This document shows, in pieces, positions 3,107-43,676 of a stretch of DNA of 64,000 nt (the first letter of the stretch is position 1; each line of letters opens with the position of its first letter). The notes under the pieces were generated by a model that was not told the DNA's origin, searched no databases, and saw only the letters and a program-made list of their open reading frames with translations. The stretch spans positions 40,922-104,921 of the forward strand of contig JACQWY010000011.1 in assembly GCA_016209015.1 (NCBI GenBank). The letters run 5' to 3'. A program made the translations under genes and the position numbers. The DNA comes from Gammaproteobacteria bacterium. Lineage in GTDB: Bacteria > Pseudomonadota > Gammaproteobacteria > Ga0077536.

Positions 3107-3853
3107 CTAGCCGCCCTCCGCTCGCGCGGGGCCCTGATTCGCCGCGAGCTTGTCGACGTTGGCGAGGGAATGCAGGTGCAGGTACAGCAACTCGAGATAC
3201 TCCTGGGCGACCAGTGCGTGGACCTGCGTCGCCGTGAGGGCCTTGATGCGGGCCCGTGTGGCGCACAGGAACCCGTTCAGGGCGAACGTCTCGCCATCCC
3301 CCAGCTTGACGGTCGCCTGCATCGGCTCGAGCAGGTCGGCAGCGACGACGGCGGCGCAGAAGGCAGCCGTCGCCTGGGTCTGGCGATGGTATTCCTCCAG
3401 GAATTCTAGGCACTGGCGCACGGCCGGGCCAGCCTCGCCGCGCTCGTCGAGCAGCTTCGCCCCTTCGGCGACGGTGTTGAAGCCCGAATAGGTCTCGTCG
3501 ATGCACACCGTGTAGCGGTCCGGCGCGGCGGCGTCGGGCACGGGCATGAAGGGATAGCGCCGCAGATAGGCGGGCAGGTATCGGCCGGTCCACCGGCCCT
3601 GGGCGTCCACGACCGCATTGCGGCCCGGCCGCAGACCCAGCAGCGCAACCGGGGCTACGGTACCGTCGTCGCGGCTCAGGAAGACGATCGGAAAGTCGCG
3701 GGCGGCGGGCGGGAATTCGATAGCAGCGAGCGGCAGGACCTGCGCCCCGGCCGCGAAGCGATAGCCGTGATCCGGATCGAGATACCACTCGCGATGCCGC
3801 GTCCGGTCGAGCGGCGTCAGATTGCGGTAGAGCGCCGGCAGCCCGGGCGCCAC
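3107..3853 (-). CDS. SapC family protein (copy 1)
   Basis: EFPPAARDFPIVF, PVALLGL, YLPAYLRRYPF, LYLHLHSLANV motifs typical of SapC; GTG start abuts the tpsA stop; no signal peptide. Confidence 0.88.
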   Translation of the reverse strand: MAPGLPALYRNLTPLDRTRHREWYLDPDHGYRFAAGAQVLPLAAIEFPPAARDFPIVFLSRDDGTVAPVALLGLRPGRNAVVDAQGRWTGRYLPAYLRRYPFMPVPDAAAPDRYTVCIDETYSGFNTVAEGAKLLDERGEAGPAVRQCLEFLEEYHRQTQATAAFCAAVVAADLLEPMQATVKLGDGETFALNGFLCATRARIKALTATQVHALVAQEYLELLYLHLHSLANVDKLAANQGPARAEGG

Positions 3854-3854
3854 G

Positions 3855-6800
3855 TCAGTAGCGCGCGTGGACCGCCGGCAGTAGGAGCTCGCCCTGCCAG
3901 CGCACGCGGCCCGTCGCGTCGATGGCGACCGCTCCGTGCGGCGTCGCGTCCGCGTTGTCGGCGAGGCTCAGTATGAACGAGTCGTCGATGTCCTCTTCGA
4001 GCTCCTCGAATTCGCCGGGCGCGGCCGCGGGCTTGCCGGCCGGCTTCGGCGCGGCCTTCGGGGCCGGCGCGGGCGTCGGCTTCGGGGCGGCCGGTGCGGG
4101 CACGGCGGGCTTCGCGGCCGGCGCGGGCTGGACCGGCGCGGCCTTCGGCTTGTCGTCGAACGTCTCGTCGAGCTCTTCGAATTCCGCCGGCTTCGCGGCT
4201 GGCGCGGCCGGCGCCGGAGCGGCCTTCGGCGCGGCCTGGGGCTGCGTCGCGGAGGGCTTCTCGACCTCTTCGAAATCCTCTTCCGGCGCGGGTTGATTCG
4301 CCGCGGGTGCGGGCGGTTTGCCCTTCGCGCCGCCGACGTCGAGGTCCTCGAAATCGTCCTTGCGCGATTCCTCCTGCGCCTCCTGGTAATCCTGGAGCTG
4401 CTTCTTGTAGCCCTCGAAGCTCGCGAGCTGCCGCTCGTATTCCGCGACGAGGTCCTTGCGTTCGCGACCGCCGCCGCGTTCCCCTTTGCCGCGCTGCTTG
4501 AGCACGTCCAGGCGCGCCTTCAGGCCCGCGATGAGCTTGTCGAGCTCTTCCATCGTCACGTTCGGCGCGCAGCCGTCCTTGTCCTCGCACTGGTCGAGCG
4601 AGAGCGCGATGCCGTTGCCGAGCACGCCGAAGAGCGTCAGATCCTGCTCGAACACGCCGACGTCGACGAACTGCACGTTCTGCAGACCGGTCAGCGCCGC
4701 CGCCGGGTTGCTGAACACGACCTGCACCGCCTGTACGCCGATGGGATTCGTCAACGAGGAGATGATCTTCAGGGCCGTCGGGTCGAACGTCTGGGAGGTC
4801 GCGTTCGAGGACGGATCGAAGGTCGGTTGCTGCACCGAGGACGAGACGGCGACGAGCACCGGTCCGCCGCCGAGGTCGAGACGGATGTTCTGGTTGTTCA
4901 CGATCGCGTTGTTCGCGATGAGCACCGCCTTGTCCGCCGTGATGCCGACCGTGCCCACGGTCGGGCCCGTGATGTCGCCCGAGGCGGAGCCCGTGCCCTG
5001 CGTATCGCCCACGGCGAGCATCGTGACCTGCCCGCCGGTCGCCGCGAGATCCGCGAGCAGATCGATGTTGCTCGCGAGCAGCGTCACGTCGCCGTGCGTC
5101 GCGAACGTGCTGCCGACGGTGATCCGATCCGCGTTGATCTCGTCGACCCGTGCATCCTCGGCCGGCCCCGTGCGCGGCGTCAGGATGCCGCCGACAATCA
5201 GATGACCGTGATAACCGGAGAAGGCCGTCGAGGAGAGGTGCCGGGCTGCAACCGTCGTGTCGATCAAGAGGTCCGTGCCGGCCGTCGGGTTGATGTCGAG
5301 ACTGCCGTTGCCGACCACCGAGCCCGCGAACGTCCAGGTGTTCGTGCTCGACTCGGCGAGCACGTCACCGGCGATGTCGGCATTGCCGTTGAATACGAGG
5401 TTGGCGCCGTGCAGATCGCCGTTGAACGTCGTGCTGCCTGAATACGTCTGCGAGCCCGTCGTCGTCACCGCGCCGATGACGGAATTCGCGCTCGCGATGT
5501 CGACGCTGCCCGCGGCGATCGCGCCGCCCACCGTGAAGCTGCCGGCGGGCGCCTGCGCGCTGAACGCGCCCGAGTGCGCATCGACCGCGCCGCCGAGCAC
5601 GATCGCACCGCCGCCGGTCGAGATCGTCGTCGTGCCGCTCGTCGTGAGCGCGCCGCCGAGCGTGAAGTTGCCGCCGCCCGTACTCGCGACGACCCCGGCG
5701 CTGCCCGTCAGCGCGCCGGTGATCGCCATGGGCGCCGCGGCGCTCGTGAGCGTCAGCGCGCCGCTGCTCGTGACGTTGCCGGCGATCGTGATTGCGCCGG
5801 CGGTGATCGACTGCACACCGGCCGTCACGACGTTGCCCTGCACGTTGAGCGCCGTGCCGCCGGTGTCGATGTTCGCGGTCGCGAGCGTGATCTGGGGCGC
5901 GGTGAACGTACCCGAGATGCCCGCGACGGCGCCGAAGGCCAGCGTCGCATTCGCGCCCTGCGCGGTGAGGTTCTGCACGTTCGTGAACGCGTTGCCGTTC
6001 ATCGTGCCGGCGTTCGCGCCGGTGATGTTCCAGCCGTTCACGATGCCGTTGCCGACGAGCTCGTTCGTGCCGGCGCCGCCGTCCATCGTGCCCGAAACGA
6101 GCACGCCCGCGCCGCTGATGACGTAGCGATCCGCGGCTGCGCCGCCGGTCAGGTTCTCGACCCCGGTGAACGCGAAGCTGTCGAGCGTGCCCTGGTTCGC
6201 CGCGGTGACGGTCCAGGTGTTCGCGACGTCGTCGGCGATCAGCGTGTCGGCGGCGGACGCGCTGCCGGTCAGCGCCTCGACGTTCGTCGTGCCGCCCGCG
6301 GTCGTCACGAGACTCGCCGTGTGGTTCTTCAAATCGACCGTGATCGGGCCGGCGAGCGCGCTGTAGTCGAGGCGATCCGTGCCGACGCCGCCATCGAGCG
6401 TCGCATAGCCCGCGGCGCCCGAGAACTGGAACGTGTCGTCGGCGCCGCCGCCGACGAGCTGCGAGACGTTCGTGAACGCCGAATTGCCGCCGATGTCGCC
6501 GGCGTTCGCGCCGTTGAGGTGCCAGGTGTTCGCGACGTCGCCGCCCTGGATCGTGTTCGTGCCGAGTCCGCCGTCGATCGCGCCCGCGAACGCCGAGGCA
6601 CCGACCACGACGAACGTATCGCCCGCGCTGCCGCCGGTGACGTTCATGATGCCGGAGAAGCTGCCGCCGAGTCCTGTCCCCGCCCCCGTGATCGTGCCCG
6701 AGGTGGCGCCCGTCAGCGTCCAGCTCGTCGCGACGTTGTCGCCGGTGATCGTATTCGTGCCGCCGCCGCCGTTGATGCTGCCCGTCAGCCGGCCGCCGGC

Positions 6801-18099: not shown

Positions 18100-19194
18100 T
18101 TAGTTCGCCGACGCTTCCCCCGCAGGCTTCGCGGCCGCTTTCGGATCCGGCGCCGCAGCGTCGCCGGCGGCCGGCACGACTTGGCCGAAATCCGCCTGCG
18201 CGAGCGACTTCCGCCAGCTCGCGAGCGCCGTGGCGTCGACGCTGACGGGATAGGTCTGGGCGACCTTATCCACGGCGGCCTGGCGGATCTTCAATGCCGC
18301 CTCGCGCTTGAGCTGGGCGACCACGCGGGGCCGGGCCTCCTCGAGCCCGAGGCTCGTGCCGGGCACCGTCTCGCCGCGTTTCAGCACATGGAAGCCGGCC
18401 GGGGTCCGGACCGGCCCGACGATGTCGCCCGCGTCCGCCTTCTGGACGGCTTCCCGCACCGGGGGCAGCAGCTCGTCGCGGCGCAAGAGTCCCATGTAAC
18501 CGCCGTTCAGCCGGCTCTCGTTGTGGCGGGAGTACTTGAGCGCCTGGGCTGCGATGTCCGACTTGCCCTTGCGCAGCGCCTCCGCGACCTGGGTGGCGAG
18601 CGCCTTGGCGGCAGCCTGTTCGGACTTCGTCGCGGACTCGTCGGCCGGGATGAACACCTGCCACAGATGCACGCGGTCCGGGATCCTGAAGGCCTCGGGA
18701 TTCTTGTCATAGAACTCCTGGATCTGGGCATCGCTCGGGAACTTCGGGTCGAGGTTGCGCCGGACGATGTCCGCCATGTAGGCCTCGACGAGCGCCTTCT
18801 GGCTCGCGCGCTGCATCAGCAGCCGGACCGGCTCGTTGCGCTCGACGTCGTTGGCGTAGGCGGCGGCGAGCACGGACTGGTTCTTCGCCTCCTGCTGCAC
18901 GAACTGACTGAACTTCTCGTCCGAGGCGAGCAGAAAGTCGCGGCTCGGCTTGTCGAGGAGCGCGAGCAGCTTCTGCAGCGCCTCGAGCTCTATCGATTTC
19001 ACCGGGACCGGTTTCGCGGGATCGGGGGCAACGGGCGGCGGTGCTGCCGCGGTCGTAGCGCCGGCGGCTGCCCCGGCAAGCGGATCGGCAGCGGCTTTAC
19101 GGGCGTTCGTATCGTACCAGCGCGCACCGGTCGCTCCCGCCAGGACCAACAGCGCCGCGACGAGCAGCGCGCTCAACAGCCTCAACACATTCAA
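18100..19194 (-). CDS. Membrane-anchored parvulin/PpiC-type peptidyl-prolyl isomerase (SurA/PrsA-like)
   Basis: N-terminal hydrophobic anchor; rotamase domain (VHLWQVFIP...ALKYS...GGYMG...GPVRTPAGFHVLK); TTG start. Confidence 0.87.
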   Translation of the reverse strand: MNVLRLLSALLVAALLVLAGATGARWYDTNARKAAADPLAGAAAGATTAAAPPPVAPDPAKPVPVKSIELEALQKLLALLDKPSRDFLLASDEKFSQFVQQEAKNQSVLAAAYANDVERNEPVRLLMQRASQKALVEAYMADIVRRNLDPKFPSDAQIQEFYDKNPEAFRIPDRVHLWQVFIPADESATKSEQAAAKALATQVAEALRKGKSDIAAQALKYSRHNESRLNGGYMGLLRRDELLPPVREAVQKADAGDIVGPVRTPAGFHVLKRGETVPGTSLGLEEARPRVVAQLKREAALKIRQAAVDKVAQTYPVSVDATALASWRKSLAQADFGQVVPAAGDAAAPDPKAAAKPAGEASAN

Positions 19195-19442: not shown

Positions 19443-20342
19443 ATGGCTCCCCAGACCCGCAATCTCGCCATCCTGTTCGCGGACATCAGCGGCAGCACGC
19501 GCCTGTACGAGCTGCTCGGCGACGTGGCGGCGCGCGCCAAGGTCGCGAGCTGCCTCGACCAGCTCACCGAAGTGATCAAGCGCCATCGGGGCACCGTCAT
19601 CAAGACCATCGGCGACGAGGTGATGTGCACGTTTCCCGACGCCGAGACCGCGGCCACCGCGGCGTGCGAGATGCACGAGACCATCGAGGACGACGCCACC
19701 GAGCAGACCGCCGCCGGACCCATCTCGCTCGCGATCCGTGTGGGTATGCATTACGGACCGGCGATCCTCGAGTCGGGCGACGTCTTCGGCGACGCGGTGA
19801 ACGTCGCCGCCCGCATGGCCTCCATGGCGAAAGCCGGACAGATCATCACGACCCAGACCGCCGTCGAGACGATGTCCCCCATCCTGCGCGCCAGCACCCG
19901 CTTCATCGACCGCGCGCCCGTGAAGGGCAAGAAGGAGACGATGGACATCTTCGAGGTGATCTGGCAGCAGGAAGACGTCACGCGAATGTCCACCGGCATC
20001 ATCGCGAAGCCGGAAATCGCCGCTCGCATGCGTCTGACGCATCACGGCGCCACGATCACGATGGGCAGCGAGCGCGCGCAGGTCGTGCTCGGCCGCAGCA
20101 AGACGGCCGACATGACGGTCGATGAAGTCCTCGCCTCCCGCCAGCACGTCCGCATCGAGTTCCGCCGGGGCAAGTTCTTCATCATCGATCAGAGTACGAA
20201 CGGCACGTACGTCAAACACTCGGGCAACGAGGCATTCCTGCGGCGCGAGGAGATGCCGCTGACGGGCAGCGGCATGATCAGCCTCGGCCGGCCGTTCAGC
20301 GAGAATCCGCAGGAAGTCGTACACTTCAGCGCCGAACCTTGA
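19443..20342 (+). CDS. Class III adenylate cyclase fused to a C-terminal FHA domain
   Basis: ILFADISGST, IKTIGDEVM, DVFGDAVNVAARM cyclase motifs; FHA motifs LGR, SRQH, STNGTYV. Confidence 0.92.
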   Translation: MAPQTRNLAILFADISGSTRLYELLGDVAARAKVASCLDQLTEVIKRHRGTVIKTIGDEVMCTFPDAETAATAACEMHETIEDDATEQTAAGPISLAIRVGMHYGPAILESGDVFGDAVNVAARMASMAKAGQIITTQTAVETMSPILRASTRFIDRAPVKGKKETMDIFEVIWQQEDVTRMSTGIIAKPEIAARMRLTHHGATITMGSERAQVVLGRSKTADMTVDEVLASRQHVRIEFRRGKFFIIDQSTNGTYVKHSGNEAFLRREEMPLTGSGMISLGRPFSENPQEVVHFSAEP

Positions 20343-20487
20343 ACGCCGCCATAGTCGGGACCGTACGCTGCGACGGGCCGGCCGCCGACTCATGGGCGAC
20401 CGGCGCCGACGCCTCACGAAATGATTCATTCGTCACCTCCGGGCGCGGGCCGGCGGGGCGGCAGTCGGGACGCGTTGGGGACCAGCA

Positions 20488-21219
20488 TTGAACAGCCACT
20501 CCGAGCCTCAGTTTTCCTGGCGGTCCTACGCCGTCTCTCACGTGGGCAAGGTGCGCAAGCTCAACGAGGATGCCTGTCTCGATCGCCCCGAGGTCGGCCT
20601 GTGGGCGATCGCCGACGGCATGGGCGGACACTCGGCCGGCGATCTCGCGAGCCAGCTCGTCATCAACGTGCTCTCGAAGATCAAGCCGCACGCCGAGCTC
20701 TCGTCGCTCGTCGATTTCGTCGAGCACGGCATCATCTCGGCGAACACCCGCCTGTTCGATCTCGCGGCAGCGAGCAATCAGACGATCGGCAGCACCGTCG
20801 TCACGCTGCTCTGCGCGCAGGGTCATTGCGTCTACATGTGGGCCGGCGACAGCCGGCTCTATCGCCTGCGCGGCGGCAGGCTGCAGCAGCTCACGACGGA
20901 TCATTCGCAGGTCGAGCTCTACGTCCAGCAGGGTCTCATCCGGCGCGAGGACGCCTCCGCCCACCCCGCCGGCAATCTCGTGACGCGGGCGGTGGGCGCG
21001 TCCGGCGAATTGCACCTCGATCTGGACATCGGGAGGCTGGCGGCCGGCGACCGCTTCCTGCTCTGTTCCGACGGGCTCATCCGCCACGTCACGTTCGAGG
21101 AAATCGAGAGCTCGCTCGGCGAACCGAGCGCCGAGCTCGCGGCCGAGCGGCTGCTCGGCATGACGCTCAGTCGCGGCGCGGTCGACAACGTTTCGATCTG
21201 CGTCGTCGAAGTGGTATGA
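20488..21219 (+). CDS. PP2C/PPM-family Ser/Thr phosphatase (PppA/Stp1-like)
   Basis: GKVRKLNED, ADGMGGHSAG, AGDSRLY, TTDHS, LLCSDGL, DNV motifs intact; TTG start. Confidence 0.93.
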   Translation: MNSHSEPQFSWRSYAVSHVGKVRKLNEDACLDRPEVGLWAIADGMGGHSAGDLASQLVINVLSKIKPHAELSSLVDFVEHGIISANTRLFDLAAASNQTIGSTVVTLLCAQGHCVYMWAGDSRLYRLRGGRLQQLTTDHSQVELYVQQGLIRREDASAHPAGNLVTRAVGASGELHLDLDIGRLAAGDRFLLCSDGLIRHVTFEEIESSLGEPSAELAAERLLGMTLSRGAVDNVSICVVEVV

Positions 21220-21306
21220 AAGCAGGAGGCACCGGTCTGCGCGCGCCACGACGCGCGGGATCCTCGGTCCGGGGACGGCACACAACTTTTTCCAAGGTAA
21301 ACGCGC

Positions 21307-24300
21307 GTGGCTGATTTCAAGACTGCCCTGGCGGCGTTGACGCGGGGCGAGGTCGCATTCGAGACCTTCATCGACAACATCGCAAAGCTCCTGGAGACGC
21401 GGCCGCAAGCCGCAGTTCAGGTGATGAATCAACTGCGCGAGGCCTATGGCGAGGACGTGATCGACGCGGCCACCTACGCGCGCCTGAAGCGCAGCGTGGC
21501 CGAGCTCGCGGCGCCGTCGCCGGATGACGACGCGCGCACCGAGACCGGCGCGCGGACCGTCTACGAGCCGCTCGCGGAGTCCGAGGCGAAGACCGTCTTC
21601 GCCGGCGACGAGGCGACGAGCGGCTACGAGATCGATCGCGACGGCGCGACCCAGCTCCTCGGCGACGTCGACCACGACGCACCGACCGCGTTGCACACCG
21701 TGCGCACCTCGCCGCCCGAGGCGTCGGGCCTCGACTTCGACATCACCGGCGACAGCCAGCCGAGCACGGGCTCTTCCTGGGATTCCTCGCTGCCGACGAT
21801 GCCGCCGCGCGCGGAGCTCAAAATCGCGCCCGGCACGGTGCTGAAGGAACGCTTCCAGCTCGACGAGGTACTCGGCGTCGGCGGTATGGGTACCGTGTAC
21901 AAGGGCCGCGACCTCATCAAGGTCGAGGCGCGCGACAAGAATCCCTACGTCGCCTTGAAAGTGCTGAACGAGGACTTCAAGAAGCACCCGGACGCGTTCA
22001 TCGCGCTCCAGCGCGAAGCGAGCCGCCAGCAGAAGCTCGCGCATCCGAACATCGCGACGGTCTACGATTTCGATCGCACCGGCGGCGGCACCGTCTTCCT
22101 GACGATGGAAATGCTCGTCGGCACGCCGCTCAACAATTACATCAAGAAGGACGTGAAGGCGCGCGGCGGTCTGCCGTTCGCGGAAGCCTTCCCGATGATC
22201 CAGGGCCTCGGCAACGCACTCGTCTACGCCCACGAACGCAACATCGTCCATTCCGACTTCAAACCCGGGAACTGCTTCCTGACGAAAGACGGCACGATGA
22301 AGGTGCTCGACTTCGGCATCGCGCGCGCAGTGAAAAATCCCGGCCAGGGCGAGGGCGAGAAGACGCTGTTCGACCCGGGCAAGCTCGGCGCGCTGACGCC
22401 GGCCTACGCGAGCGCCGAGATGCTGGAGGGTCAGGAACCCGATCCGCGGGACGACATCTATGCGCTCGCCTGCGTCGCCTACGAGCTGCTGACGGGACGG
22501 CATCCGTTCAACAAGCTGCCCGCGAACAGCGCGCGCGACAACAAGCTCGTGCCGCAGCCCGTGAAGGGTCTGAAGCGCAAGCAGCAACGCGGCCTGATGC
22601 GCGGCCTGGCCTTCGATCGCAAGAATCGCAGCCAGAGCGTCGCGGAATTCCTCGAAGAGCTCGAGGGCCGGACGTCGCCGTTCAGGAATCCGTTCATCAT
22701 GGTGCCCGCGGCCGTCGTGCTGCTCGCCGTCGCCGGCGTCTATCCGACCCTGAACGTCCTGCACCAGCGCGACATCGCGGGTCGCATCGCACTCGCGAAG
22801 ACGGGCGATGCGGCGACGATCGATCGGGTGCTGACCGGCCTCGCCACGCTCGACAATCCGGCCGATCGCGACCAGGTGCTCGTCGCGGCGCGCGAGGAAA
22901 TCTTCAAGTACTACCAGGCCAGGATCAACGAACGGATCGACACCGAGCACAAGCAATACGACTTCGCCGGCGCCCGCGCGCTGATCGAGAGGATCTCCGC
23001 CTTCGACGTCTACAAGGACTCGGCCCAGGTGAAGGCGATGAAGCAGCAGATCGACGACAGCGAGAACGTGCTGCTCGCGCTGCAGACCGAGCAGTTCAAT
23101 ACGGCGCTCGAGCAGGAAGCGCTGCTGCCGACCGCCGGCGGGACGAACGTGCTCGGCGTGATCGAGACCGTGGCGAAATTCGCGCCCGATGCCGCGAAGC
23201 AACTGAAGAAGCGTCTGTCCGGCCCCTATTCAGCCGCGATCACGAAGGCGATCGCCGACAAGGACTTCGAGCGCGCGAAGACGCTGGGCACCACCGGTAT
23301 CGGTCTCCTGCCCGACAGCAGGAACCTGCGCAACCTCATGGACAAGGTCGGCAGCGAGCAGGAACGCTACGAGCTCGCCGCGCAGATCCTCGGCCTGACG
23401 GGCCGCATCCAGGCCGCGCTCGACGGCTACAAGGCGCTCGACGCCCTGCGCGACGTGCGCAGCGACGTCGTGGAGCTCGCGAAGATCGATCCCGGCAATC
23501 ATCTACTCGAGGAGATCGCGAAGAAGATCGGCGCGGGCGTCGACAAGGACCTCAAGGATCTGCAGGCTTCGCACGCCTGGGGCCGCAGTCTCGTCGTGCA
23601 GCAGGAGTACGCGCCGATGTTGCGCGCGGTCGGGCTGCAGGACGCCGCGCTCGCCGCGGCGAAGCTGCGCGACGAATTCACGGGCGAGGTCGGCAAGCGC
23701 GCGGGCGCGGTCCTGCAGGCCGTCGCCGGAGACGCGATCGCACCGCCCGCGAGCCCGAACGCCGTCGACGGCCTGAAGGAGCTCGCCGCGATCGCGCCCG
23801 AGGACAACCGCACGCTGCAGGTCCGCGACGTCGTCGCGCACGCCCTGCTGCGCAGCGCACGCCTCGCCCGCGCGAAAGGCGACGAAGCGCATGTCGCGCC
23901 CCGTCTGCAGCTCGCCGCGGCGCAGTCGCCGAGCCCGGCGGTCGCGAAGCTCATCGGCGATGCCGCCCAACCCGCGGCGGCCGCGACACCGGATCACGCG
24001 GCCTTCCAGACCGCGCTCGCCGCGCTCGGCAACGACCCCGCGAAGCTCCCCGCCATCCTCGCCGCGCTCGATGCGCTCGAAGCCGCGAAGCCCGATGCGC
24101 CCGAGCTCGCGACGGCCCGCGACGCCACCGCCACGGCGGCGGCCGCGCTCGCCGACGAGCTCGGCAAGGCGGGAAAATGGGACGACGCGCTCGCCGCGGC
24201 CTGGTCTGCTGCGGCACTCGCCCCGGCCGCGCCCGGCTTCGGCGACAGGCTCGCCGCGCTCGACACGAGCCGCCTGCAGGCGCGCGCGGAAGCCGAACGC

Positions 24301-26178
24301 AAGCTCGTCGCCGACAGCAAGCAGGCCGTCGAACAACTGCTCGCCGCACCGAGCGCGGATCGCGAGTGGAACTCGAAGGTCCAGCAGCGCATGGCGGACG
24401 TCCTGGGCCTCGCGGATCCCAAGGATCCCTGGCTCGCCGAGTACCGCGGCAAGCTCGCCGCGGTCTACGTCGAGAAGGCGAAGGGCATGCGCGAAGCCGA
24501 GCGTTTCGCCGAGGGCGGCAGCCTTCTCGAGCGCGCCGCGCGCTATGCCCCGGATCTTCCCGCGCTCGCCGCGGAACGCCAGGCGCTCGCCGCGGCGAAC
24601 GAAGCGTTCGAGAAAGAACAGCGCGAGCAGGAACTCGCCGCCCGGATCGAAGGTTTCAAGCAGACGTTCGCGACGCAGGCGAAGGCGAACGACGTCGTCG
24701 GCGCCGCGAAGACGCTCGAGCAGATCACGGCCGAAGTCGGCGGCGACGACGCCTTCGTCGCGACCGAGGCCCCGCAAGTGCTCGGCAAGGCCTATCTCCG
24801 TCTCGCGGTCAGCAAGGCCGAGGCGCAGGATTTCGCGGCCGCGCTGAAATTCGCGAAAGCGGGCCTGAAGCTGCAGCCGAAGGATCAGGAACTGCGTCTC
24901 GCCGTGAAGGACTACACCGTGAGCGGCAACACGCAGGACCTCGGCAATACGTTCGCGCGCAATCCGAACTTCGACGTCGCCGAGGTGCTCGACAAGATCG
25001 CCGAGGTGCAGACGCTCGATCCGAAGGTCTACGGCGAGCAGGAAGCGGCCTGGGCGAAAGCCGTCGCCGCGCGTCTGAATGCGCCCGAGGAGAACGCGGA
25101 TGCCGAAGCCGCGAAGAAGCTGCTGCAGCACGCGAAGGAAGTCTTCGCCGGCAACCAGCTCATCGCCGCGCTCGAGCCCGTGCCCCTCTTATCCGCGCCG
25201 ACGCCCGAAATTGCGGCGATCGAGAAGGCGATCAACGCCGCGCTGTTGACGCAGGCGCGCGATCTCATCACCGCCGCGGCCGCGAAGAACCCGGACAGCG
25301 CGGACGTCGTACGGCTCAAGGGCCTCTACAACGGCCGTCTGAAGCAGGTGAAGTCGCTCTACGAGGATTACAAGACGGCGTTCACGGCGAAGGATTACGA
25401 GAAGGCGAATCAGATCCTCGACAAGGCCCTCGGCATCTGGGCCGACAGCGCGACGTTCAAGAAGGAGAAGTCCCGCGTGGTGGCGGCGCTCAAGCCCGGG
25501 GCCTCGGTGCAGGAGGAGACGAACCTGCTGCCGCCGCCGCCGTCGAAGAGCCCGTGCACGGATCAGCTCGCGGGCCACGGCAAGCGCAAGCAGGGCACGT
25601 GCTTCGACATGATCGACCAGACCGCGCGCGGTCCGCTGATGGTCGTCGTGCCGGGCGGCGGCGCCGCCGCGCACGCGTTCGCCATCGGGCGCTACGAAGT
25701 GTCAGTCGGCGACTACAACGCCTACTGCCAGCTCTCGGGCAAGTGCCAGCCCGTCGCGGGCAGCGATCCGGATCTGCCGGTCACGAACATCACGCTCGAG
25801 CAGGCGAATGCCTACGCGACCTGGCTGTCCGCGCGCACCGGCAAGACGTATCGGCTGCCGACGGTGCAGGAATGGAGCTATGCCGCCGAGGCGGCGGGCG
25901 ATCAGCCGCAGAAGGACTACAACTGCCGCGTCGAGCAGGGCGGTCAGATCATGAAGGGCCAGTCCGCAATGGACGTGAACAGCGGCAAGCCGAACGGCTG
26001 GGGGCTCTACAACTACGTGGGCAACGTCCAGGAATGGGTCAAGAGCGGCGGCGGGGTGGTCGTGCGCGGTGGCGCGTTCGAGGACACGTTCAGCAAGTGC
26101 AACATCAATCTCGAAAAGCCGCACGACGGCAAGGCCGACAACGTCACCGGCTTCCGGCTCGTCCTGGATCTCGGTTGA
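21307..26178 (+). CDS. Membrane Ser/Thr (Hanks) kinase with long helical/TPR-like region and C-terminal FGE-sulfatase-like domain
   Basis: LGVGGMGTVYKG, VALKVL, HSDFKPGN, DFGIARA, TPAYAS-E, DIYALAC; one TM (FIMVPAAVVLLAVAGVY); C-terminal YEVSVGDYNAYC, YRLPTVQEWSYAA, GNVQEW, VRGG, GFRLV. Confidence 0.92.
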   Translation: MADFKTALAALTRGEVAFETFIDNIAKLLETRPQAAVQVMNQLREAYGEDVIDAATYARLKRSVAELAAPSPDDDARTETGARTVYEPLAESEAKTVFAGDEATSGYEIDRDGATQLLGDVDHDAPTALHTVRTSPPEASGLDFDITGDSQPSTGSSWDSSLPTMPPRAELKIAPGTVLKERFQLDEVLGVGGMGTVYKGRDLIKVEARDKNPYVALKVLNEDFKKHPDAFIALQREASRQQKLAHPNIATVYDFDRTGGGTVFLTMEMLVGTPLNNYIKKDVKARGGLPFAEAFPMIQGLGNALVYAHERNIVHSDFKPGNCFLTKDGTMKVLDFGIARAVKNPGQGEGEKTLFDPGKLGALTPAYASAEMLEGQEPDPRDDIYALACVAYELLTGRHPFNKLPANSARDNKLVPQPVKGLKRKQQRGLMRGLAFDRKNRSQSVAEFLEELEGRTSPFRNPFIMVPAAVVLLAVAGVYPTLNVLHQRDIAGRIALAKTGDAATIDRVLTGLATLDNPADRDQVLVAAREEIFKYYQARINERIDTEHKQYDFAGARALIERISAFDVYKDSAQVKAMKQQIDDSENVLLALQTEQFNTALEQEALLPTAGGTNVLGVIETVAKFAPDAAKQLKKRLSGPYSAAITKAIADKDFERAKTLGTTGIGLLPDSRNLRNLMDKVGSEQERYELAAQILGLTGRIQAALDGYKALDALRDVRSDVVELAKIDPGNHLLEEIAKKIGAGVDKDLKDLQASHAWGRSLVVQQEYAPMLRAVGLQDAALAAAKLRDEFTGEVGKRAGAVLQAVAGDAIAPPASPNAVDGLKELAAIAPEDNRTLQVRDVVAHALLRSARLARAKGDEAHVAPRLQLAAAQSPSPAVAKLIGDAAQPAAAATPDHAAFQTALAALGNDPAKLPAILAALDALEAAKPDAPELATARDATATAAAALADELGKAGKWDDALAAAWSAAALAPAAPGFGDRLAALDTSRLQARAEAERKLVADSKQAVEQLLAAPSADREWNSKVQQRMADVLGLADPKDPWLAEYRGKLAAVYVEKAKGMREAERFAEGGSLLERAARYAPDLPALAAERQALAAANEAFEKEQREQELAARIEGFKQTFATQAKANDVVGAAKTLEQITAEVGGDDAFVATEAPQVLGKAYLRLAVSKAEAQDFAAALKFAKAGLKLQPKDQELRLAVKDYTVSGNTQDLGNTFARNPNFDVAEVLDKIAEVQTLDPKVYGEQEAAWAKAVAARLNAPEENADAEAAKKLLQHAKEVFAGNQLIAALEPVPLLSAPTPEIAAIEKAINAALLTQARDLITAAAAKNPDSADVVRLKGLYNGRLKQVKSLYEDYKTAFTAKDYEKANQILDKALGIWADSATFKKEKSRVVAALKPGASVQEETNLLPPPPSKSPCTDQLAGHGKRKQGTCFDMIDQTARGPLMVVVPGGGAAAHAFAIGRYEVSVGDYNAYCQLSGKCQPVAGSDPDLPVTNITLEQANAYATWLSARTGKTYRLPTVQEWSYAAEAAGDQPQKDYNCRVEQGGQIMKGQSAMDVNSGKPNGWGLYNYVGNVQEWVKSGGGVVVRGGAFEDTFSKCNINLEKPHDGKADNVTGFRLVLDLG

Positions 26179-31921: not shown

Positions 31922-31922
31922 C

Positions 31923-34524: not shown

Positions 34525-34537
34525 GCACGGCACGGGG

Positions 34538-34804
34538 GTGGCGGTGGCTGTCGATCCGGATCTGAACCGCACGCTCTGGCGCTGCCGGCGCGGCATGCGG
34601 GAGCTGGACATGCTCCTGCATCGCTACGCCGAGAAGTACTATCCCGCGATGGACGCCGCCGACCGCGCGACATTCGAGCGCTTCCTCGAAGCGCAGGACG
34701 CGGACATCTACGCCTGGTTCATCGGGCGCGAAGCTCCGCCCGATGCGCCGCTCGCCGCGCTCGTCGGACGCATCGTCGCCTCACGTCCCGAGCTCGCCGA
34801 CTGA
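34538..34804 (+). CDS. sdhE: FAD assembly factor SdhE (SDHAF2/Sdh5/YgfY)
   Basis: WRCRRGMRELDMLL (RGxxE motif), D-DIYAWF. Confidence 0.95.
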   Translation: MAVAVDPDLNRTLWRCRRGMRELDMLLHRYAEKYYPAMDAADRATFERFLEAQDADIYAWFIGREAPPDAPLAALVGRIVASRPELAD

Positions 34805-34823
34805 CGCGCCCGAGGAGGCCGCC

Positions 34824-36796: not shown

Positions 36797-36821
36797 GACT
36801 CCTCAACGGAGTTCTCCCGGC

Positions 36822-37334: not shown

Positions 37335-37836
37335 GCGGCTCGCGCTCGTACTCGCCACGCTCCTCGTGCTGCTCAGACCCGCATTCGCCGCGGGCGGCGG
37401 CGAGTTCTCCTACATGACGTTGAACGGTGTGAAAGCGGCCGCGGTCGCGATCCAGGGCATCGAACCGGGCTTCGCCCGTTACGGCCTCACGCTGCCGCCG
37501 CTGCAGGCCGCGGTCGAGAGCCAGCTCCGTCAGAGCGGGATCGAGATCGTGTCCTACGAGGACGCGGTGCGCCGGCCGGACGCCGCTCTCGTGCAGGTGA
37601 AGTTCCGCACGAACCAGAGCGAATACCAGTTCTACTTCTACAACCTCGCGCTCGAAGTCCGCGAGAAGATCCCGCTCGGCAACGCCGCCGGCGGCTTCGT
37701 GTCCGTGCTCATCTGGTCGGACGCGCAACAGGGCAGCGTGCAGCCGACCGACCTGCCACGGATCACGAAAGTCGTCGACGACGTCGTCGCCGTGTTCGTG
37801 CGCGAGTACCAGGCCCAGAACGCCGTCAAACGCTGA
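37327..37836 (+). CDS. Hypothetical exported protein
   Basis: GTG start overlapping the dsbB end; signal peptide ending PAFA; normal-composition 169-aa ORF. Confidence 0.7.
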   Translation: MAERLALVLATLLVLLRPAFAAGGGEFSYMTLNGVKAAAVAIQGIEPGFARYGLTLPPLQAAVESQLRQSGIEIVSYEDAVRRPDAALVQVKFRTNQSEYQFYFYNLALEVREKIPLGNAAGGFVSVLIWSDAQQGSVQPTDLPRITKVVDDVVAVFVREYQAQNAVKR

Positions 37837-40126
37837 CCGCGCCCGGCTCGCGAGCCGTCTGCGCAATTTGCGCGTCGACGACCGCGAGCGCGCTCATGTT
37901 GATCACGCGCCGCACGGATGCCGACGGCGTCAGCACGTGCGCAGTCTGCCGGAGCCCCATGAGTATCGGCCCGACCACGACGCCGTCGCCGAGCACCGTC
38001 AGCAGATGCATGGCGATGTTCGCCGCGTCGAGGCCGGGCATGACGAGCACGTTCGCCGCGCCGCTGAGCGTCGAATCCGGCAGCGCCGCCTCGCGCAGCG
38101 CCGGCAGCAGCGCGGCGTCGGCCTGCATCTCGCCGTCGACCTCGAGCCCGGGCCGGCGCGCGCGGATGAGGGCGAGCGCCTCGCGCATGCGCAGCGCCGA
38201 ATCCTCGTTGCTCGTGCCGAAGTTCGAATGCGACAGGAGCGCGAGCCGCGGCGTTAGCCCGAAGCGTTGCACGCGATCCGCCGTGTGAATCGCGGTATCG
38301 GCAATTTGCGCGGCACTCGGGTTCGCGTGGACCTGTGTGTCGCACATGAAATACGTGCCCTTCTTCATCACGAGCACGCTGTAGGTCGCGGGTGCGAGGT
38401 GTCCGGTGTCGACACCGAGCACTTCCGTCAGGTGCCGCAGATGATCGTGATAAGCCCCGCTCACGCCGCACAGCATCGCGTCCGCCTCGCCCTTCTGCAG
38501 CAGCAGCGCGGCGATGACGGTCGCGTTCGTGCGCAGCATCGTGCGCGCCTGCTGGAGCGTGACGCCGCGCCGGGACATCAGCGCGTGATAGGACGCCGAA
38601 TACTCCCGGAAGCGGTGGTCGCTCTCCGGATTGACGACCGTGAAGTCCTCGTCCGGCGTGAGCCGGAGCCCGAGCTGCGCGATGCGCTGGGCGATGACGG
38701 CCGGCCGGCCGACGAGGATCGGCCGCGCGAGGCGATCGTCGACGACCGACTGCACTGCGCGCAGCACGACCGGCTCCTCGCCGTCGGCGTAGACGAGCCG
38801 TTTGCGGTCCGTGCGCGCGCGGTCGAAGATCGGCCGCATCAGCAGCATCGACTGGAAGACGAATCTCGTGAGTTGTTCGCGATAAGCATCGAGATCGGCG
38901 ATCGGCCGCGTCGCGACGCCGCTCTCCATCGCGGCCTTCGCGATCGCCGGCGCGAGCGTCGTGATGAGGCGAGGATCGAAGGGCTTAGGAATGATGTACT
39001 CGCGCCCGAACGACAGACTCTCGCCGCCGTAGGCCGCGAGCACGACGTCCGAGGCTTCCTGCATCGTGAGCTCGGCGAGCGCGCGCACGCAGGCGGCCTT
39101 CATTTGCTGCGTGATCGTCGTCGCGCCGGCGTCGAGCGCGCCGCGGAACATGTACGGGAAGCACAGCACGTTGTTCACCTGGTTCGGATAGTCCGAACGT
39201 CCCGTCGCGACGATCGCGTCCGGGCGCGCGGCGAGCGCCTCCTCGGGCAGGATTTCCGGCGTCGGATTCGCGAGCGCGAGGATGATGGGCTGCGCCGCCA
39301 TCGTCGCGACCATCGCCCCGGTGAGCACGCCGGGGCCCGACAGCCCGAGGAAGACGTCCGCGCCGACGATCGCCTCGGCGAGCGTGCGCGCCGTGGTGTC
39401 CTGGGCGTAGACCGCCTTGTGCTCCTCCATGTGATGTGGCCGGCCGCGGTAGATGACGCCCGCGCGATCGACGGCCGTGACGTTGCCGCGCGTGAGGCCG
39501 AGCGTCTCGAGGAGACTGAGGCACGCGAGTGCCGCGGCGCCCGCGCCGGAGACCACGAGGCGCACTTCGTCCATGCGTTTGCCGACGAGCTTCAGCGCGT
39601 TCAGGATCGCCGCCGAGGCGATAATCGCCGTGCCGTGCTGATCGTCGTGGAAGACCGGGATGCCGCAGCGCTCGCGGAGCTTCTCCTCGACGTAGAAGCA
39701 CTCCGGGGCCTTGATGTCCTCGAGGTTGATGCCCCCGAACGTCGGCGCGAGGCTCGCGATGATTTCGACGAGCTTGTCCGGGTCCTTCTCGGCGATCTCG
39801 ATGTCGAACACGTCGATGCCCGAGAATTTCTTGAAGAGCACCGCCTTGCCTTCCATCACCGGCTTGCCGGCGAGCGGACCGATGTCGCCGAGACCGAGCA
39901 CCGCCGTGCCGTTCGTGATCACGGCGACGAGGTTCGCGCGGTTCGTGTAGTCCGCGACCTTCAGCGGATCGGCGGCGATCTCCTCGCAGGGCGCGGCGAC
40001 GCCGGGCGAATAGGCGAGCGCGAGATCGCGCTGCGTCGCGAGCGGCTTCGTGGCGGCGATTTCGACTTTGCCGGGCCGCGGTACGCGGTGGTATTCGAGT
40101 GCGTGTTTGACGAGTTGTTCGTCCAT
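37826..40126 (-). CDS. maeB: NADP-dependent malic enzyme with phosphotransacetylase-like domain
   Basis: [52 protein letters not shown]-terminal PTA-like region. Confidence 0.97.
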
Positions 40127-40299
40127 GAGGGAGTCCTCGGGCGGCGCTGCTGGCGCCGCCCTTGCCGGTCGATGTTCACGGAATGGTTCGAATCTTCATA
40201 GGATGCCGACGAAGGAGGGGCGGCGATCGCGGTATTCGGCCCTTGCTCGGCGTCGCGAGCCCTTCGATGATCGCTCTGCAAGCCGGGGTATGACCCGCA

Positions 40300-40367
40300 T
40301 GGATAACTCGCTGACGCGAGTTATCCACACGCGTCAGACCCCGGCACCACACGCGTCAGACCCCGGC
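40300..40367. repeat. REP-like perfect hairpin followed by a 21-bp direct repeat
   Basis: TGGATAACTCGC-TGAC-GCGAGTTATCCA (40300-40327); CCACACGCGTCAGACCCCGGC at 40325-40345 and 40347-40367. Confidence 0.75.
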
Positions 40368-40380
40368 CCCCTGCGCCTGC

Positions 40381-41742
40381 TCAAAACGGCATGCGCGGCG
40401 GCATCTGGCCCTTCATGCCGCGGATGAGATTCTTCAGGCCGCCCTTCTTCGAGACTTTCTTCATCATCTTCTGCATCTGATCGAACTGCTTCAGCAGCCG
40501 GTTGATGTCCTGCACCTGCGTGCCGGAGCCCGTCGCGATGCGGCGCTTGCGCGAGGCCTTGATGATCGCCGGAAAGCGGCGCTCCTGCGGCGTCATCGAA
40601 TCGATGATCGCGGCGAGGCGGGTCAGCTCCTTGTCGTTGACGCGGCTCTTGACGTGATCGGGGAGCTCGGCCGTGCCCGGCAGTTTGCCCATGAGCGCGG
40701 CGAGGCCGCCCATGTTCTTCATCTGGTCGAGCTGTTCGCGGAAGTCGAGGAGATCGAAACCCTTGCCCTTGGAGAGCTTCTCGGCGACCTTCGCCGCCTT
40801 CTCCTTGTCGACCTTCTGCTCGACTTCCTCGATGAGCGTCAATACGTCGCCCATGCCGAGGATGCGCGAGGCCATGCGATCCGGATGGAAGGGTTCGAGC
40901 GCGTGTGTCTTCTCGCCGACGCCGATGAACTTGATCGGCTTGCCGGTGACATGGCGCACCGACAGCGCGGCGCCGCCGCGGGCATCGCCATCGGTCTTTG
41001 TGAGTACCACACCGCTGAGCGGCAGCGCCTCGTTGAACGCGCGCGCCGTGTTCACCGCGTCCTGACCCATCATGGAGTCGATGACGAACAGCGTTTCCTT
41101 GGGATTCAGCGCGGTGTGGAGGTCCTTGATCTCCTGCATCATCTCGTCGTCGATGTGCAGGCGTCCCGCGGTATCGACGATGAGGACGTCCTTGAACTGA
41201 CGGCGCGCCTGGTCGAGCGCAGACAGCGCGATGTCGCGCGGCTTCGCGTTCGCGGCACTCGGGTAGAACTCGACGCCGATCTCCTCGGCGAGCACGCGCA
41301 ACTGCTCGATGGCCGCGGGACGATAGACGTCGCAGCTCACGACCGCGACGCTCTTCCTCTCGTTCTCCTTGAGGCGCTTGGCGAGCTTCGCGGCACTCGT
41401 CGTCTTGCCCGAGCCCTGGAGGCCGGCCAGCAGGATCACGACCGGCGGCTGGGCCGCGTAGTCGATGCCGACACCGCTCTCGCCCATCAGCAGCGTGAGC
41501 TCGTCGCGCACCACGCGGATGAGCGCCTGCCCGGGCGTCAGATTGCCGATGACGTCCTGACCGAGCGCCTTCGCCCGCACGCCGTCCATGAACGCTCGCA
41601 CGACCGGCAGCGCGACGTCGGCTTCGAGCAGCGCCATGCGCACTTCGCGCAGCGTGGCGTCGATGTTCTCTTCGGTGAGCCGCGCCTGACCGCGCAGCTT
41701 CTTGACGACCGCTGTCAGGCGGTCACTGAGATTCTCAAACAT
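40381..41742 (-). CDS. ffh: Signal recognition particle protein
   Basis: MFENLSDRL, GLQGSGKTT, DTAGR, TKTDGDARGGAALS, RMASRILGMGD, M domain. Confidence 0.98.
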   Translation of the reverse strand: MFENLSDRLTAVVKKLRGQARLTEENIDATLREVRMALLEADVALPVVRAFMDGVRAKALGQDVIGNLTPGQALIRVVRDELTLLMGESGVGIDYAAQPPVVILLAGLQGSGKTTSAAKLAKRLKENERKSVAVVSCDVYRPAAIEQLRVLAEEIGVEFYPSAANAKPRDIALSALDQARRQFKDVLIVDTAGRLHIDDEMMQEIKDLHTALNPKETLFVIDSMMGQDAVNTARAFNEALPLSGVVLTKTDGDARGGAALSVRHVTGKPIKFIGVGEKTHALEPFHPDRMASRILGMGDVLTLIEEVEQKVDKEKAAKVAEKLSKGKGFDLLDFREQLDQMKNMGGLAALMGKLPGTAELPDHVKSRVNDKELTRLAAIIDSMTPQERRFPAIIKASRKRRIATGSGTQVQDINRLLKQFDQMQKMMKKVSKKGGLKNLIRGMKGQMPPRMPF

Positions 41743-41771
41743 GGTTCGTATGCTTCACTCGTTGCGGTCGC

Positions 41772-42860
41772 TCACCAGCCTTCCATGACTTCCTCGAACG
41801 GAAAGCGCAGACCGACCGTGTTCCACACCTCGGCGACGCGCTTCACGACCGGCTCGGCCTTGCGGAACCACTCGGGGTGCCGCGCGTGATTGTCGAAGAC
41901 CTCGAAGGACTCCGGCTTCGGATCGCGATGCCCGAAGCGGTAGTAGAAGGACTTCACGAGATCCTCCATGCGCTCCTTGCCATAGGCGACGATGATGATG
42001 TCGCGGCTCGCGGAGAGACCGGTCGTCGCGACGTAATAGTGGTATTGCTCCCAATAGCGCAGGTAGGCGTCGAAGTAATCGGTGTTCGCGATCTCTTCCG
42101 GGTCGACGCCCGTGTACACGAGGTCGCGCCGCGCCCACTCTTCTATGTTGCCGCGGACCGCGAACTTGCCGTTCGCCGGCCAGCCGCCGGATTTCTCGTA
42201 GGTGGAGATGCACGACGTGACGGGATGGCGGACGGTCAGTATGTTCTCGACGGCGTGCCCGAGGATGCGATGGAAGAAGCCGCCGGCGTAAGTCCCCTTC
42301 GTGAGCTTCTTCGGCACGACGATCTTGCCGGAATGCGGTTTGTTCTTCCCGAAGTAGAGCTCGACCATCGTCAGGTACTCGGCCATCGTCTGCAGGCTCG
42401 TCGTCCAGGAGTTCACGCCGCGATCGAACGTGAACGGTCCGGCTTCGGGGAACCCGTCGTGCGCGATTACGTTCGGCACGCGGTCGGGGTGGAAGCCGAG
42501 CGCCCGGTAGATCTCCTTCGTCAGATACGAGCCGCCGTTGCGCGGCACGCCGATGATGTTGATGAAATGGAAACGAAGCTGGATATCCTTGATGAGCTCG
42601 ACGTCGCCGGTCATGAGCGCGACGAGGAGCTGATAGGCGCGGCCGATCGCCTGCTGGCCGACGGCGTTCGAGAGCACGAGCGTCGCGTTGTCGGTCGCGC
42701 TGCGCACGAGGCGGGCCTGTTCGTTCGTCAGCGCCTCGGAGAGCTGATCGCCCCACACCGCGCCTTCGAAGGGCACCTCGGCGACGATGTGGTAGAGAAA
42801 ATCAATGAAAACGGGCGATACGGGCAGCTCCCGATCGCTCAGCTTGATCTCGACACCCAT
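41772..42860 (-). CDS. PAPS-dependent sulfotransferase-fold protein
   Basis: 5'-PSB-like IIGVPRNGGSYL and 3'-PB-like TVRHPVTSCIS motifs; ~95-aa helical N-terminal extension; no signal peptide. Confidence 0.72.
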   Translation of the reverse strand: MGVEIKLSDRELPVSPVFIDFLYHIVAEVPFEGAVWGDQLSEALTNEQARLVRSATDNATLVLSNAVGQQAIGRAYQLLVALMTGDVELIKDIQLRFHFINIIGVPRNGGSYLTKEIYRALGFHPDRVPNVIAHDGFPEAGPFTFDRGVNSWTTSLQTMAEYLTMVELYFGKNKPHSGKIVVPKKLTKGTYAGGFFHRILGHAVENILTVRHPVTSCISTYEKSGGWPANGKFAVRGNIEEWARRDLVYTGVDPEEIANTDYFDAYLRYWEQYHYYVATTGLSASRDIIIVAYGKERMEDLVKSFYYRFGHRDPKPESFEVFDNHARHPEWFRKAEPVVKRVAEVWNTVGLRFPFEEVMEGW

Positions 42861-42941
42861 GGGGAATCCTGGTTCCGGATTGAGGCTGCATGGTAAGAGG
42901 GACGCCCGGGCGGTTCAAGCGAACCGGGACGTCGCGCGCGC

Positions 42942-43676
42942 CTAACTCCTTGAACGCGCGGCCTCGCGATCCAGCAGCGCCGCGAAGTTGTCGAGCGACA
43001 TCAAGTGCGCATAGAGACGCGCGAGCCAGCCGCGCGTCATCAACTCGCGAAGGTTCGCCACCGGCAGCTCGTTCAGCTTCACTTCGGCGACGCGCAGCAT
43101 CCCGGTGAGGCGTTTGCGCGGCGCGGCGTTGGGATTGATGTCCGCTTCGAAAGGCTCGAGCAGGCCGAGGTCGTCTATCAGCTTCGCGAATTCGTTCGTC
43201 TGCTCGCGCGCCGCGTCGAAATCCTCGATGAGACGCCGCAGCGGGTCCCACGCCGGTGTCGGCTCGCCTCGCGCGTCGAGGAGCACGGGCGCGGCGTGCT
43301 GATCGAGACCGCTCTCTTCGACGAGTATCAGCGACTGCGCACGTCCTTCCGGGTCCGTGACGCGAGCGGTGTGGAACGGATAGCGCCGCACGTAGGCCGG
43401 ACAATACGCTTCGGGCACCCACCGGCCCTCCTGCACGAACAAATTCACGCCCGGCTCGAGCCCGGTCAGCACTACGGGCTGCGGCAGGTTCGCCTCGTCG
43501 CGCGCGAAGACGATGGGGTAGGAGCGCGCGGCCGGCACGAATTCCGGCACGGTCAGGTAGAACGAGTGAAGTGTCGCGGCGAAACTCTGCGCGCCGGCAT
43601 GGATACCGCGCAGGCGATGTTTCGTCTTGTCGAATGGGGCGACCGCCCGGTAGCCCGGCGGTGCGGGGATCGCCAT
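42942..43676 (-). CDS. SapC family protein (copy 2)
   Basis: EFVPAARSYPIVF, PVVLTGL, YCPAYVRRYPF, LYAHLMSLDNF. Confidence 0.88.
   Translation of the reverse strand: MAIPAPPGYRAVAPFDKTKHRLRGIHAGAQSFAATLHSFYLTVPEFVPAARSYPIVFARDEANLPQPVVLTGLEPGVNLFVQEGRWVPEAYCPAYVRRYPFHTARVTDPEGRAQSLILVEESGLDQHAAPVLLDARGEPTPAWDPLRRLIEDFDAAREQTNEFAKLIDDLGLLEPFEADINPNAAPRKRLTGMLRVAEVKLNELPVANLRELMTRGWLARLYAHLMSLDNFAALLDREAARSRS

Follow-up and report, generated by a model that had tools for sequence, protein, structure and literature searches.

Two-partner secretion (TPS; type Vb) is usually described as requiring, besides the general machinery of Sec and the periplasm, only the exoprotein TpsA and the transporter TpsB. 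Two described systems, hmw1ABC with the glycosyltransferase HMW1C and cdiBAI with the immunity protein CdiI, are three-gene TPS operons with a cytoplasmic accessory gene. SecB is a general, housekeeping anti-folding factor, which also acts on the type I substrate HasA. The SapC family (PF07277), whose function is unclear, was named from the sapCDEF locus of Campylobacter fetus, a locus for type I secretion of the S-layer; there and in C. rectus, a SapC-family gene without a signal peptide lies in an operon exporting a large, cysteine-poor surface protein. A prediction by Iyer et al. 2010 (PMC2938197) makes SapC an uncharacterised enzyme, from its conservation pattern in a neighbourhood of JOR/JmjC, tryptophan halogenase and TonB-receptor genes, for which they proposed a role in small-molecule biosynthesis. 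Our literature searches retrieved no paper connecting SapC with TPS. Here we analysed a stretch of 64,000 nucleotides (nt; hereafter the window) from a Gammaproteobacteria bacterium (assembly GCA_016209015.1, contig JACQWY010000011.1, positions 40,922 to 104,921), which carries two sapC genes, each in a TPS operon. We conclude that these operons are an undescribed variant of the TPS operon with an orphan third component.

In each locus, the TpsA carries a signal peptide followed by an N-terminal TPS domain, and the adjoining TpsB has POTRA and ShlB domains (Table 1). The two TpsB proteins are only 28% identical and the two TPS domains 43%, indicating that the TPS systems are old, separate lineages. 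SapC-1 and SapC-2 are both full-length members of PF07277 (gathering score 28.9 bits), with 34% identity between the two (E 9e-32). The maximal Kyte-Doolittle value over 19 residues is 1.34 in SapC-1 and 0.96 in SapC-2, and neither has an N-terminal hydrophobic or membrane segment. The stop codon of tpsA-1 and the start codon of sapC-1 are separated by a single nucleotide (TGA c GTG), a spacing that would suit translational coupling of sapC-1 to tpsA-1. An earlier reading made from the sequence alone (the sequence-only reading) had already noticed two divergent SapC-family genes, the lack of a signal peptide in both and the independence of the two TPS loci, and had given the origin of the family name and its unclear function; our analyses and the literature we found agree with all of these points. 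Its placement of each sapC downstream of tpsA in a tpsB-tpsA operon was right in that both are distal genes, but sapC-2 does not follow tpsA-2 directly. A fecR-like gene intervenes, overlapping the end of tpsA-2 by 10 nt and ending 13 nt before sapC-2.

The described systems resemble these loci in part. In sapCDEF, the exporter is of type I (ABC transporter, membrane-fusion protein and TolC), whereas the window has the Sec-fed Omp85 transporter TpsB, and no gene for an ABC transporter, a membrane-fusion protein or a TolC-like protein lies next to SapC at either window copy. The operons hmw1ABC and cdiBAI share with the window a tpsB-tpsA pair and a cytoplasmic, cargo-dedicated third gene, and locus 2 also has a glycosyltransferase gene; however, SapC shows no relationship to the GT41 enzymes or to immunity proteins, be it in sequence or in fold, the window TpsA proteins have no toxin module, and the window glycosyltransferase is GT1-like and not GT41. 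The JmjC/halogenase neighbourhood shares the SapC family and a large β-rich outer-membrane protein as partner, but genes for a halogenase, hydroxylase or receptor are adjacent to neither window SapC.

We scanned one genome per species, which yielded at least 595 SapC relatives, and kept the 80 loci closest to SapC-1 with 10-kb flanks. This sample is skewed to relatives of SapC-1, and a second sample, from metagenomes, is skewed to relatives of SapC-2. Genes in the fetched loci (L-numbers) were called by a simple longest-open-reading-frame (ORF) rule. The architecture of locus 1 recurs with the same flanking genes (L081, L085, L086, L154): gammaproteobacterial assemblies show the order parvulin, tpsB, giant tpsA, in some cases a ~190-aa ORF, sapC, a small ORF, Sel1 and leuCD, and the spacers in operons of this type are 1–13 nt. 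Homologues of TpsA-1 span 4000–4700 amino acids (aa). The giant beside SapC in L081 (P0154, 4558 aa) is 50% identical at its N-terminus to the TPS domain of TpsA-1, and the C-terminal parts of the giants of L002, L004–L006 and L009 match the TpsA-1 C-terminus. The architecture of locus 2 recurs in metagenomes (L090, L094, L095, L100, L120, L123). A FecR-like gene lies directly 5' of SapC in 17 metagenome loci; where at least ~4 kb is available upstream, a large ORF precedes the FecR-like gene and SapC, and a TPS domain was found in all six cases with the N-terminus in range. In L128, the locus is rearranged and tpsB-tpsA lie on the opposite strand, still adjoining sapC, the gene for a 362-aa protein that also follows sapC-2, and the same glycosyltransferase gene.

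For SapC, the TPS domain and TpsB, trees computed by a quick method from the loci carrying them agree at all resolved nodes. Thus the phylogenetic check proposed in the sequence-only reading came out in its favour, and SapC co-diverges with TpsA and TpsB. We then compared the window with related loci for the extent of divergence. Against L085, a locus of type 1, the identity is 47% for SapC, 60% for TpsB and 59% for the TPS domain, whereas the backbone protein LeuC is 78% identical. Against L090, L095 and L100, loci of type 2, it is 47–57% for SapC, 49–52% for TpsB, 50–55% for the TPS domain and 57–63% for the FecR-like protein, compared with 80–81% for the backbone protein Ffh and 79–81% for the 362-aa protein. 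SapC therefore diverges like the TPS genes and unlike LeuC or Ffh, which places it in the secretion module and argues against a chance adjacency. As judged from these identities, such a rate is what one would expect if SapC contacts a partner that itself evolves fast.

SapC is not confined to TPS loci. Among the 80 loci, TPS genes were in view in three (L011, L079, L080), or nine when six orthologues of locus 1 are added. Most of the informative neighbours were giant non-TPS proteins, either of the RTX type or accompanied by a HlyD/M50/SecA-like cassette. In 26 of the 80 loci, SapC has within 1 kb an ORF of at least 1500 aa that runs in the same direction (P ~2e-24, with the background rate set generously at 2%), although one of these (L049) encodes a PAS/MASE1 sensor and not an exoprotein. 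Most giants extend past the 10-kb flank, and seven that we scanned carry RTX calcium-binding repeats. The cassette, present in 21 of the 80 loci (including L010, L012, L014, L024, L026, L028, L031, L032, L035 and L036), consists of a GAF-HlyD adaptor (620 aa), an M50/PqqD protein (715 aa) and a shortened SecA-like ATPase (665 aa), to which TolC is often added; no ABC transporter was seen in the cassette loci. In total, 40 of the 80 loci have a giant ORF, the cassette or TPS genes. The cassette loci belong to the sister clade of SapC-1 and again have SapC beside a giant exoprotein, but they differ from the window in their putative export machinery, in that SapC is often upstream of the giant gene, and in often carrying an extra ~250-aa domain.

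In the SapC tree (145 rows, quick method), the deepest split (support 99) separates SapC-1 from SapC-2. The SapC-1 clade has 15 rows from orthologous TPS loci and adjoins a clade of 61 rows from giant and cassette loci. The SapC-2 clade (13 rows, support 99) consists of loci with the FecR-like gene and TPS genes; its sister (19 rows) keeps SapC and the 362-aa gene and has no TPS genes. A further clade of 17 rows sits among housekeeping genes. TPS-linked SapC thus occupies at least three separate places on the tree. SapC beside TPS or other giant genes also occurs in named species: Halopseudomonas aestusnigri VGXO14 and Pseudomonas neustonica SSM26 have a TPS-type SapC locus in the order giant, tpsB, sapC, and a 5140-aa gene without a TPS domain directly precedes sapC on a plasmid of Azospirillum brasilense Sp7. 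On p17Y0159.2, a small IncFII plasmid of the fish pathogen Yersinia ruckeri, a 1675-aa β-repeat protein, an OmpH/Skp-like gene and SapC stand in a row (L158, 1280–7827), with no TPS domain in the giant and no TpsB visible. These results show that SapC is not TPS-specific and that the link in the window is one face of a wider association of SapC with giant exoproteins. The link itself, as put forward in the sequence-only reading, is real, conserved and module-specific, each architecture recurring in related genomes and metagenomes, but the 'SapC-TPS subclass' that it proposed is too narrow: the informative neighbours in the survey were mostly giant non-TPS proteins, TPS genes are missing from the clade next to that of SapC-2, and related TpsA proteins exist without SapC. 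Among relatives of TpsA-1, those 54–63% identical in the TPS domain retain SapC (P0129, P0136, P0143, P0154), and those 42–51% identical are without it (P0157, P0190, P0202).

The SapC family is large, with 6674 representatives of clusters at 50% identity (E 1e-3 or better), nearly all of them stand-alone proteins of 235–270 aa. In 138 SapC sequences from all genomic contexts, conservation is 100% for E46, N79, Y92, P94, R98, R99, P101 and S229 and 99% for H226; the polar residues among them are seven, E46, N79, Y92, R98, R99, H226 and S229. Both window copies retain every residue that is invariant in the family, including the PAxxRRYPF motif. AlphaFold2 gave a confident model of SapC-1 (predicted local distance difference test, pLDDT, 92.9; predicted template-modelling (TM) score, pTM, 0.88). 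This model matched no structure in the PDB by Foldseek (best E 0.5, TM at most 0.18) and none in the viral library BFVD (best E 0.015, TM 0.13), and PDB searches with SapC sequences and profiles were negative. Since the model, the sequence and the profile all lack a PDB match, we rejected a cupin, JmjC, SecB or HlyC-type acyltransferase fold for SapC. In three family representatives of ~490 aa (P0462, P0500, P0503), SapC is fused to a ~250-aa domain in which a further set of polar residues is invariant (S, K, R, H, K, Y, E, K, R, S, D, H). As a stand-alone gene, this domain occurs in 13 of the 80 loci, all of the giant or cassette type (for example L036:6099-6860 and L041:11604-12356); it is absent from the window and from the TPS-type loci. 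It has no Pfam match, and its sole PDB profile match, the peptide prenyltransferase PagF (E 0.9), is non-significant and was not reproduced with single sequences.

Table 1. Features of the two sapC loci in the window (positions in the window; E-values from profile searches).
Feature	Position	Strand	Matches and remarks
Locus 1
parvulin-type peptidyl-prolyl isomerase gene	18100..19194	-	Rotamase, Rotamase_2 and Rotamase_3 domains; 5' of tpsB-1
tpsB-1, Omp85-type outer-membrane transporter, 632 aa	16127..18025	-	ShlB E 3.5e-18; POTRA_2 E 7e-13
tpsA-1, exoprotein, 4056 aa	3855..16025	-	TPS domain PF05860 E 1e-34; TIGR01901 E 4e-23
sapC-1, 248 aa	3107..3853	-	PF07277 E 1.4e-66, 224.7 bits, profile 1-220 of 220; GTG start; predicted cytoplasmic
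small ORF, 111 aa	2765..3100	-	starts 6 nt after sapC-1; no Pfam match
divergent block	19443-26178	+	adjoins the locus-1 TPS operon
Locus 2
GT1-like glycosyltransferase gene	50450..51721	-	weak EryCIII-like_C and Glyco_trans_4 matches; 5' of tpsB-2
sigma-70-like promoter match	50428-50400		5' of tpsB-2
tpsB-2, 570 aa	48682..50394	-	ShlB E 1e-23; POTRA_2 E 6e-17
tpsA-2, exoprotein, 1388 aa	44388..48554	-	PF05860 E 2.7e-32; TIGR01901 E 2.6e-19
fecR-like gene, periplasmic protein, 235 aa	43690..44397	-	PF04773 E 9e-9; signal peptide
sapC-2, 244 aa	42942..43676	-	PF07277 E 1.3e-52, 179 bits, profile 2-220 of 220; ATG start; predicted cytoplasmic
gene for 362-aa protein	41772..42860	-	3' of sapC-2; no Pfam, NCBIfam or PDB match

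At locus 1, TpsA-1 consists of an extended signal peptide of ~51 aa, the TPS domain with an NPNG motif at residue 133, a repeat region and an acidic, proline-rich C-terminus. The TPS domain was detected only when the N-terminal 400 aa were scanned alone, and a Pfam scan of the whole protein gave zero matches. Its passenger is built of ~65-aa repeats, each closing with a single RTX-like GGxGxDxF nonapeptide; 15 strict GGxGxDxUx motifs were counted against 0.5 expected from shuffling, as isolated copies and not as tandem RTX blocks, and the Pfam HemolysinCabind model did not match the repeats. No Pfam domain was found in the passenger region of either TpsA. The parvulin gene is the conserved first gene of the module and keeps its position in L085, L086, L154 and L155. 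On the other side, sapC-1 is followed by the small ORF, a Sel1 gene and leuC. Weak conservation of the 111-aa ORF, chiefly over its last 30 residues, is seen at the corresponding place in L081–L085 (phmmer matches to the post-SapC ORFs of L085, E 3e-7, and of L081–L084). In some relatives, an additional ORF of ~190 aa with a signal peptide lies between the giant tpsA and sapC (L003:72-641, L004, L005, L006, L007, L009, L154:18660-19256). This ORF is paralogous to a module with a cysteine pair that the giant itself carries close to its C-terminus (residues ~3777–3877 in TpsA-1), and in L007 the ORF and SapC are kept with no giant gene within 10 kb. The divergent block next to the operon encodes an FHA-adenylate/guanylate cyclase, a PP2C-like protein and a Ser/Thr kinase of 1623 aa bearing an FGE-sulfatase domain at its C-terminus. 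It is present in the orthologous loci L085, L086, L154 and L155, and the kinase-FGE gene is also found beside a TpsA without SapC in L088.

At locus 2, TpsA-2 has an acidic C-terminal tail, and a motif count found no RTX-like motifs in it. The FecR-like protein has a maximal Kyte-Doolittle value of 1.98 over 19 residues in its signal peptide and a weak, sub-threshold match to the LapA retention module NF033682. Homologues of the glycosyltransferase occur in L090 (46% identity) and in the rearranged L128 (12854–14230, 33%). By homology, this gene travels with the locus-2 TPS module even where the locus is rearranged, so that proteins of the TpsA-2 type may be glycosylated in the cytoplasm by an enzyme outside GT41. 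The neighbours of SapC-2 are the FecR-like gene, the 362-aa gene and ffh. In 30 metagenome loci, spread over four gene arrangements, the 362-aa gene comes after SapC; the protein is highly conserved (mean identity 81%; 64–82% across hundreds of gammaproteobacterial assemblies), and all 803 homologues found are annotated 'hypothetical'. Searches of Pfam, NCBIfam and PDB profiles gave no match, to a sulfotransferase family or to any other, and its AlphaFold2 model was too poor (pLDDT 58) for a meaningful fold comparison. Its GVPRNGGSYLTKE loop is invariant, with a likeness to the 3'-phosphoadenosine-5'-phosphosulfate-binding loop seen by eye only. This gene is a candidate member of the SapC-2 module. 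Promoter and terminator scans of the window, which has a G+C content of 65–72%, were uninformative save for the one promoter-like site 5' of tpsB-2, and the sequencing runs holding this region are DNA runs from groundwater metagenomes only, with no RNA runs.

We tentatively favour the view that each SapC acts in the cytoplasm as an accessory component of the exoprotein module that encodes it and is directed to the cargo, most plausibly as a holdase or adaptor. The sequence-only reading, which our results support in part, had proposed SapC as a dedicated chaperone or modification scaffold for large β-repeat exoproteins; the data are compatible with such a role and with a catalytic one. Because SapC accompanies cargoes of different export routes, is predicted to be cytoplasmic and diverges at a cargo-like pace, it most likely acts on the precursor before translocation across the inner membrane, and would serve the cargo and not the outer-membrane transporter. 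While still in the cytoplasm, the cognate large exoprotein would be bound by SapC as an unfolded precursor, kept export-competent and passed to the inner-membrane translocase; alternatively, SapC may present the precursor to tailoring enzymes such as the co-travelling glycosyltransferase. We infer both the physical binding and any effect on export. Such a job would be dedicated but analogous to that of SecB, which is likewise a small cytoplasmic protein meeting the need of unfolded cargo before export, independently of the outer-membrane step. The analogy does not extend to sequence or fold, in which there is no similarity, and SapC, unlike SecB, is encoded in cis with individual cargoes. A role of this kind would suit TpsA, which uses Sec, the giant RTX-type proteins of type I-like or SecA-like export and the published TonB-receptor neighbourhoods alike.

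Several observations weigh against a holdase or adaptor. The seven polar residues are 99–100% invariant, which is more like an active or ligand site than a holdase surface, and Iyer et al. 2010 (PMC2938197) predicted an enzyme. The fold of SapC matches neither SecB nor any other solved chaperone. We looked for a repeat or module common to all SapC-linked cargoes and found none: the RTX-like motifs of TpsA-1 are missing in TpsA-2, and a hidden Markov model of the TpsA-1 repeat picks up, besides other TpsA giants, a single non-TPS giant but none of the RTX or cassette giants. This lack of a common sequence feature weakens any model in which SapC directly recognises a shared repeat. In addition, some clades of SapC are surrounded by housekeeping genes, without a large exoprotein in 20 kb, and, as noted above, related TpsA proteins occur without an adjacent SapC.

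The invariant residues lead naturally to the idea that SapC is itself an enzyme tailoring the cargo in the cytoplasm before export, comparable to the HlyC-type acyltransferases of RTX toxins or HMW1C in function but with an unrelated fold. We regard this as somewhat less likely than a holdase or adaptor, although it accounts for the retention of the seven residues in all contexts, including both window copies, and accords with the published prediction. Co-occurring genes of a cytoplasmic tailoring type, namely the glycosyltransferase of the locus-2 module and radical SAM genes in some loci, point the same way, as do the fusions to the ~250-aa domain, with its invariant polar residues and its separate occurrence elsewhere. 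However, SapC has no recognisable cofactor motif, matches no solved enzyme fold (TM below 0.17 for the best Foldseek hits; PDB profiles negative), and evolves as fast as surface cargo, whereas the 362-aa neighbour, a likelier enzyme, is far more conserved; nor was a common acceptor sequence found among the cargoes. SapC could instead be a regulator or checkpoint that couples operon expression to export status without handling cargo. The small size, cytoplasmic location and distal operon position of SapC, the conserved signalling genes near locus 1 (Ser/Thr kinase-FGE, PP2C, FHA-cyclase) and the pairing with a FecR-like protein at locus 2, FecR domains being active in trans-envelope signalling, would fit this. 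It is nonetheless improbable, as Pfam and NCBIfam found no DNA-binding or known signalling domain in SapC, the FecR-like partner is soluble and periplasmic and lacks a membrane span by which to reach SapC, and the signalling genes also accompany the SapC-less TpsA of L088.

SapC might also be a backbone gene beside which TPS cassettes happened to land, especially at locus 2, where sapC-2 is followed by the very conserved 362-aa gene and ffh. The pair of SapC and the 362-aa gene persists without TPS in the 19-row sister clade and lies beside ffh in the clade of the window, and TPS-linked loci are a minority of SapC loci. We consider a meaningless adjacency very improbable, because SapC-2 diverges like the TPS genes and not like the 362-aa protein or Ffh, the adjacency is kept in three gene orders (the window type, the L120/L123 type and the divergent L128), the association arose independently for SapC-1, L011 and L079/L080, and the locus-1-type spacers are very short. 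SapC could also be read, from its position as a small cytoplasmic gene right after tpsA, as a CdiI-type immunity protein of a cdiBAI-like system. VENN, ELYN, QLYN and LYVN motifs and toxin or pre-toxin Pfam domains are absent from both TpsA proteins, and we rejected this role. The size of the SapC family and its invariant residues are likewise unlike hypervariable immunity proteins, and SapC lies upstream of giant non-TPS proteins in many loci.

How proteins of thousands of residues are handled before export, that is, kept unfolded, intact and targeted, is poorly understood, and SapC accompanies giant cargoes on no fewer than three export routes. It is conceivable, and we advance it with reserve, that SapC founds a route-independent class of cytoplasmic factors with an unseen fold, which would hold, pilot or tailor giant repetitive exoproteins and thereby make them export-competent, be it for TPS, type I secretion or the SecA-like/M50/HlyD cassette. 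As a large orphan family with no matching fold and seven invariant polar residues that spans these routes, SapC is a concrete and cheap target, and cultured carriers exist both for the TPS type (H. aestusnigri, P. neustonica) and for a giant gene followed by sapC (A. brasilense Sp7). If SapC is required for export, it would be relevant to the heterologous production of large adhesins. If a route-independent class does exist, a genome with two deeply diverged SapC–TpsA pairs, such as this one, would be a natural test of cargo specificity.

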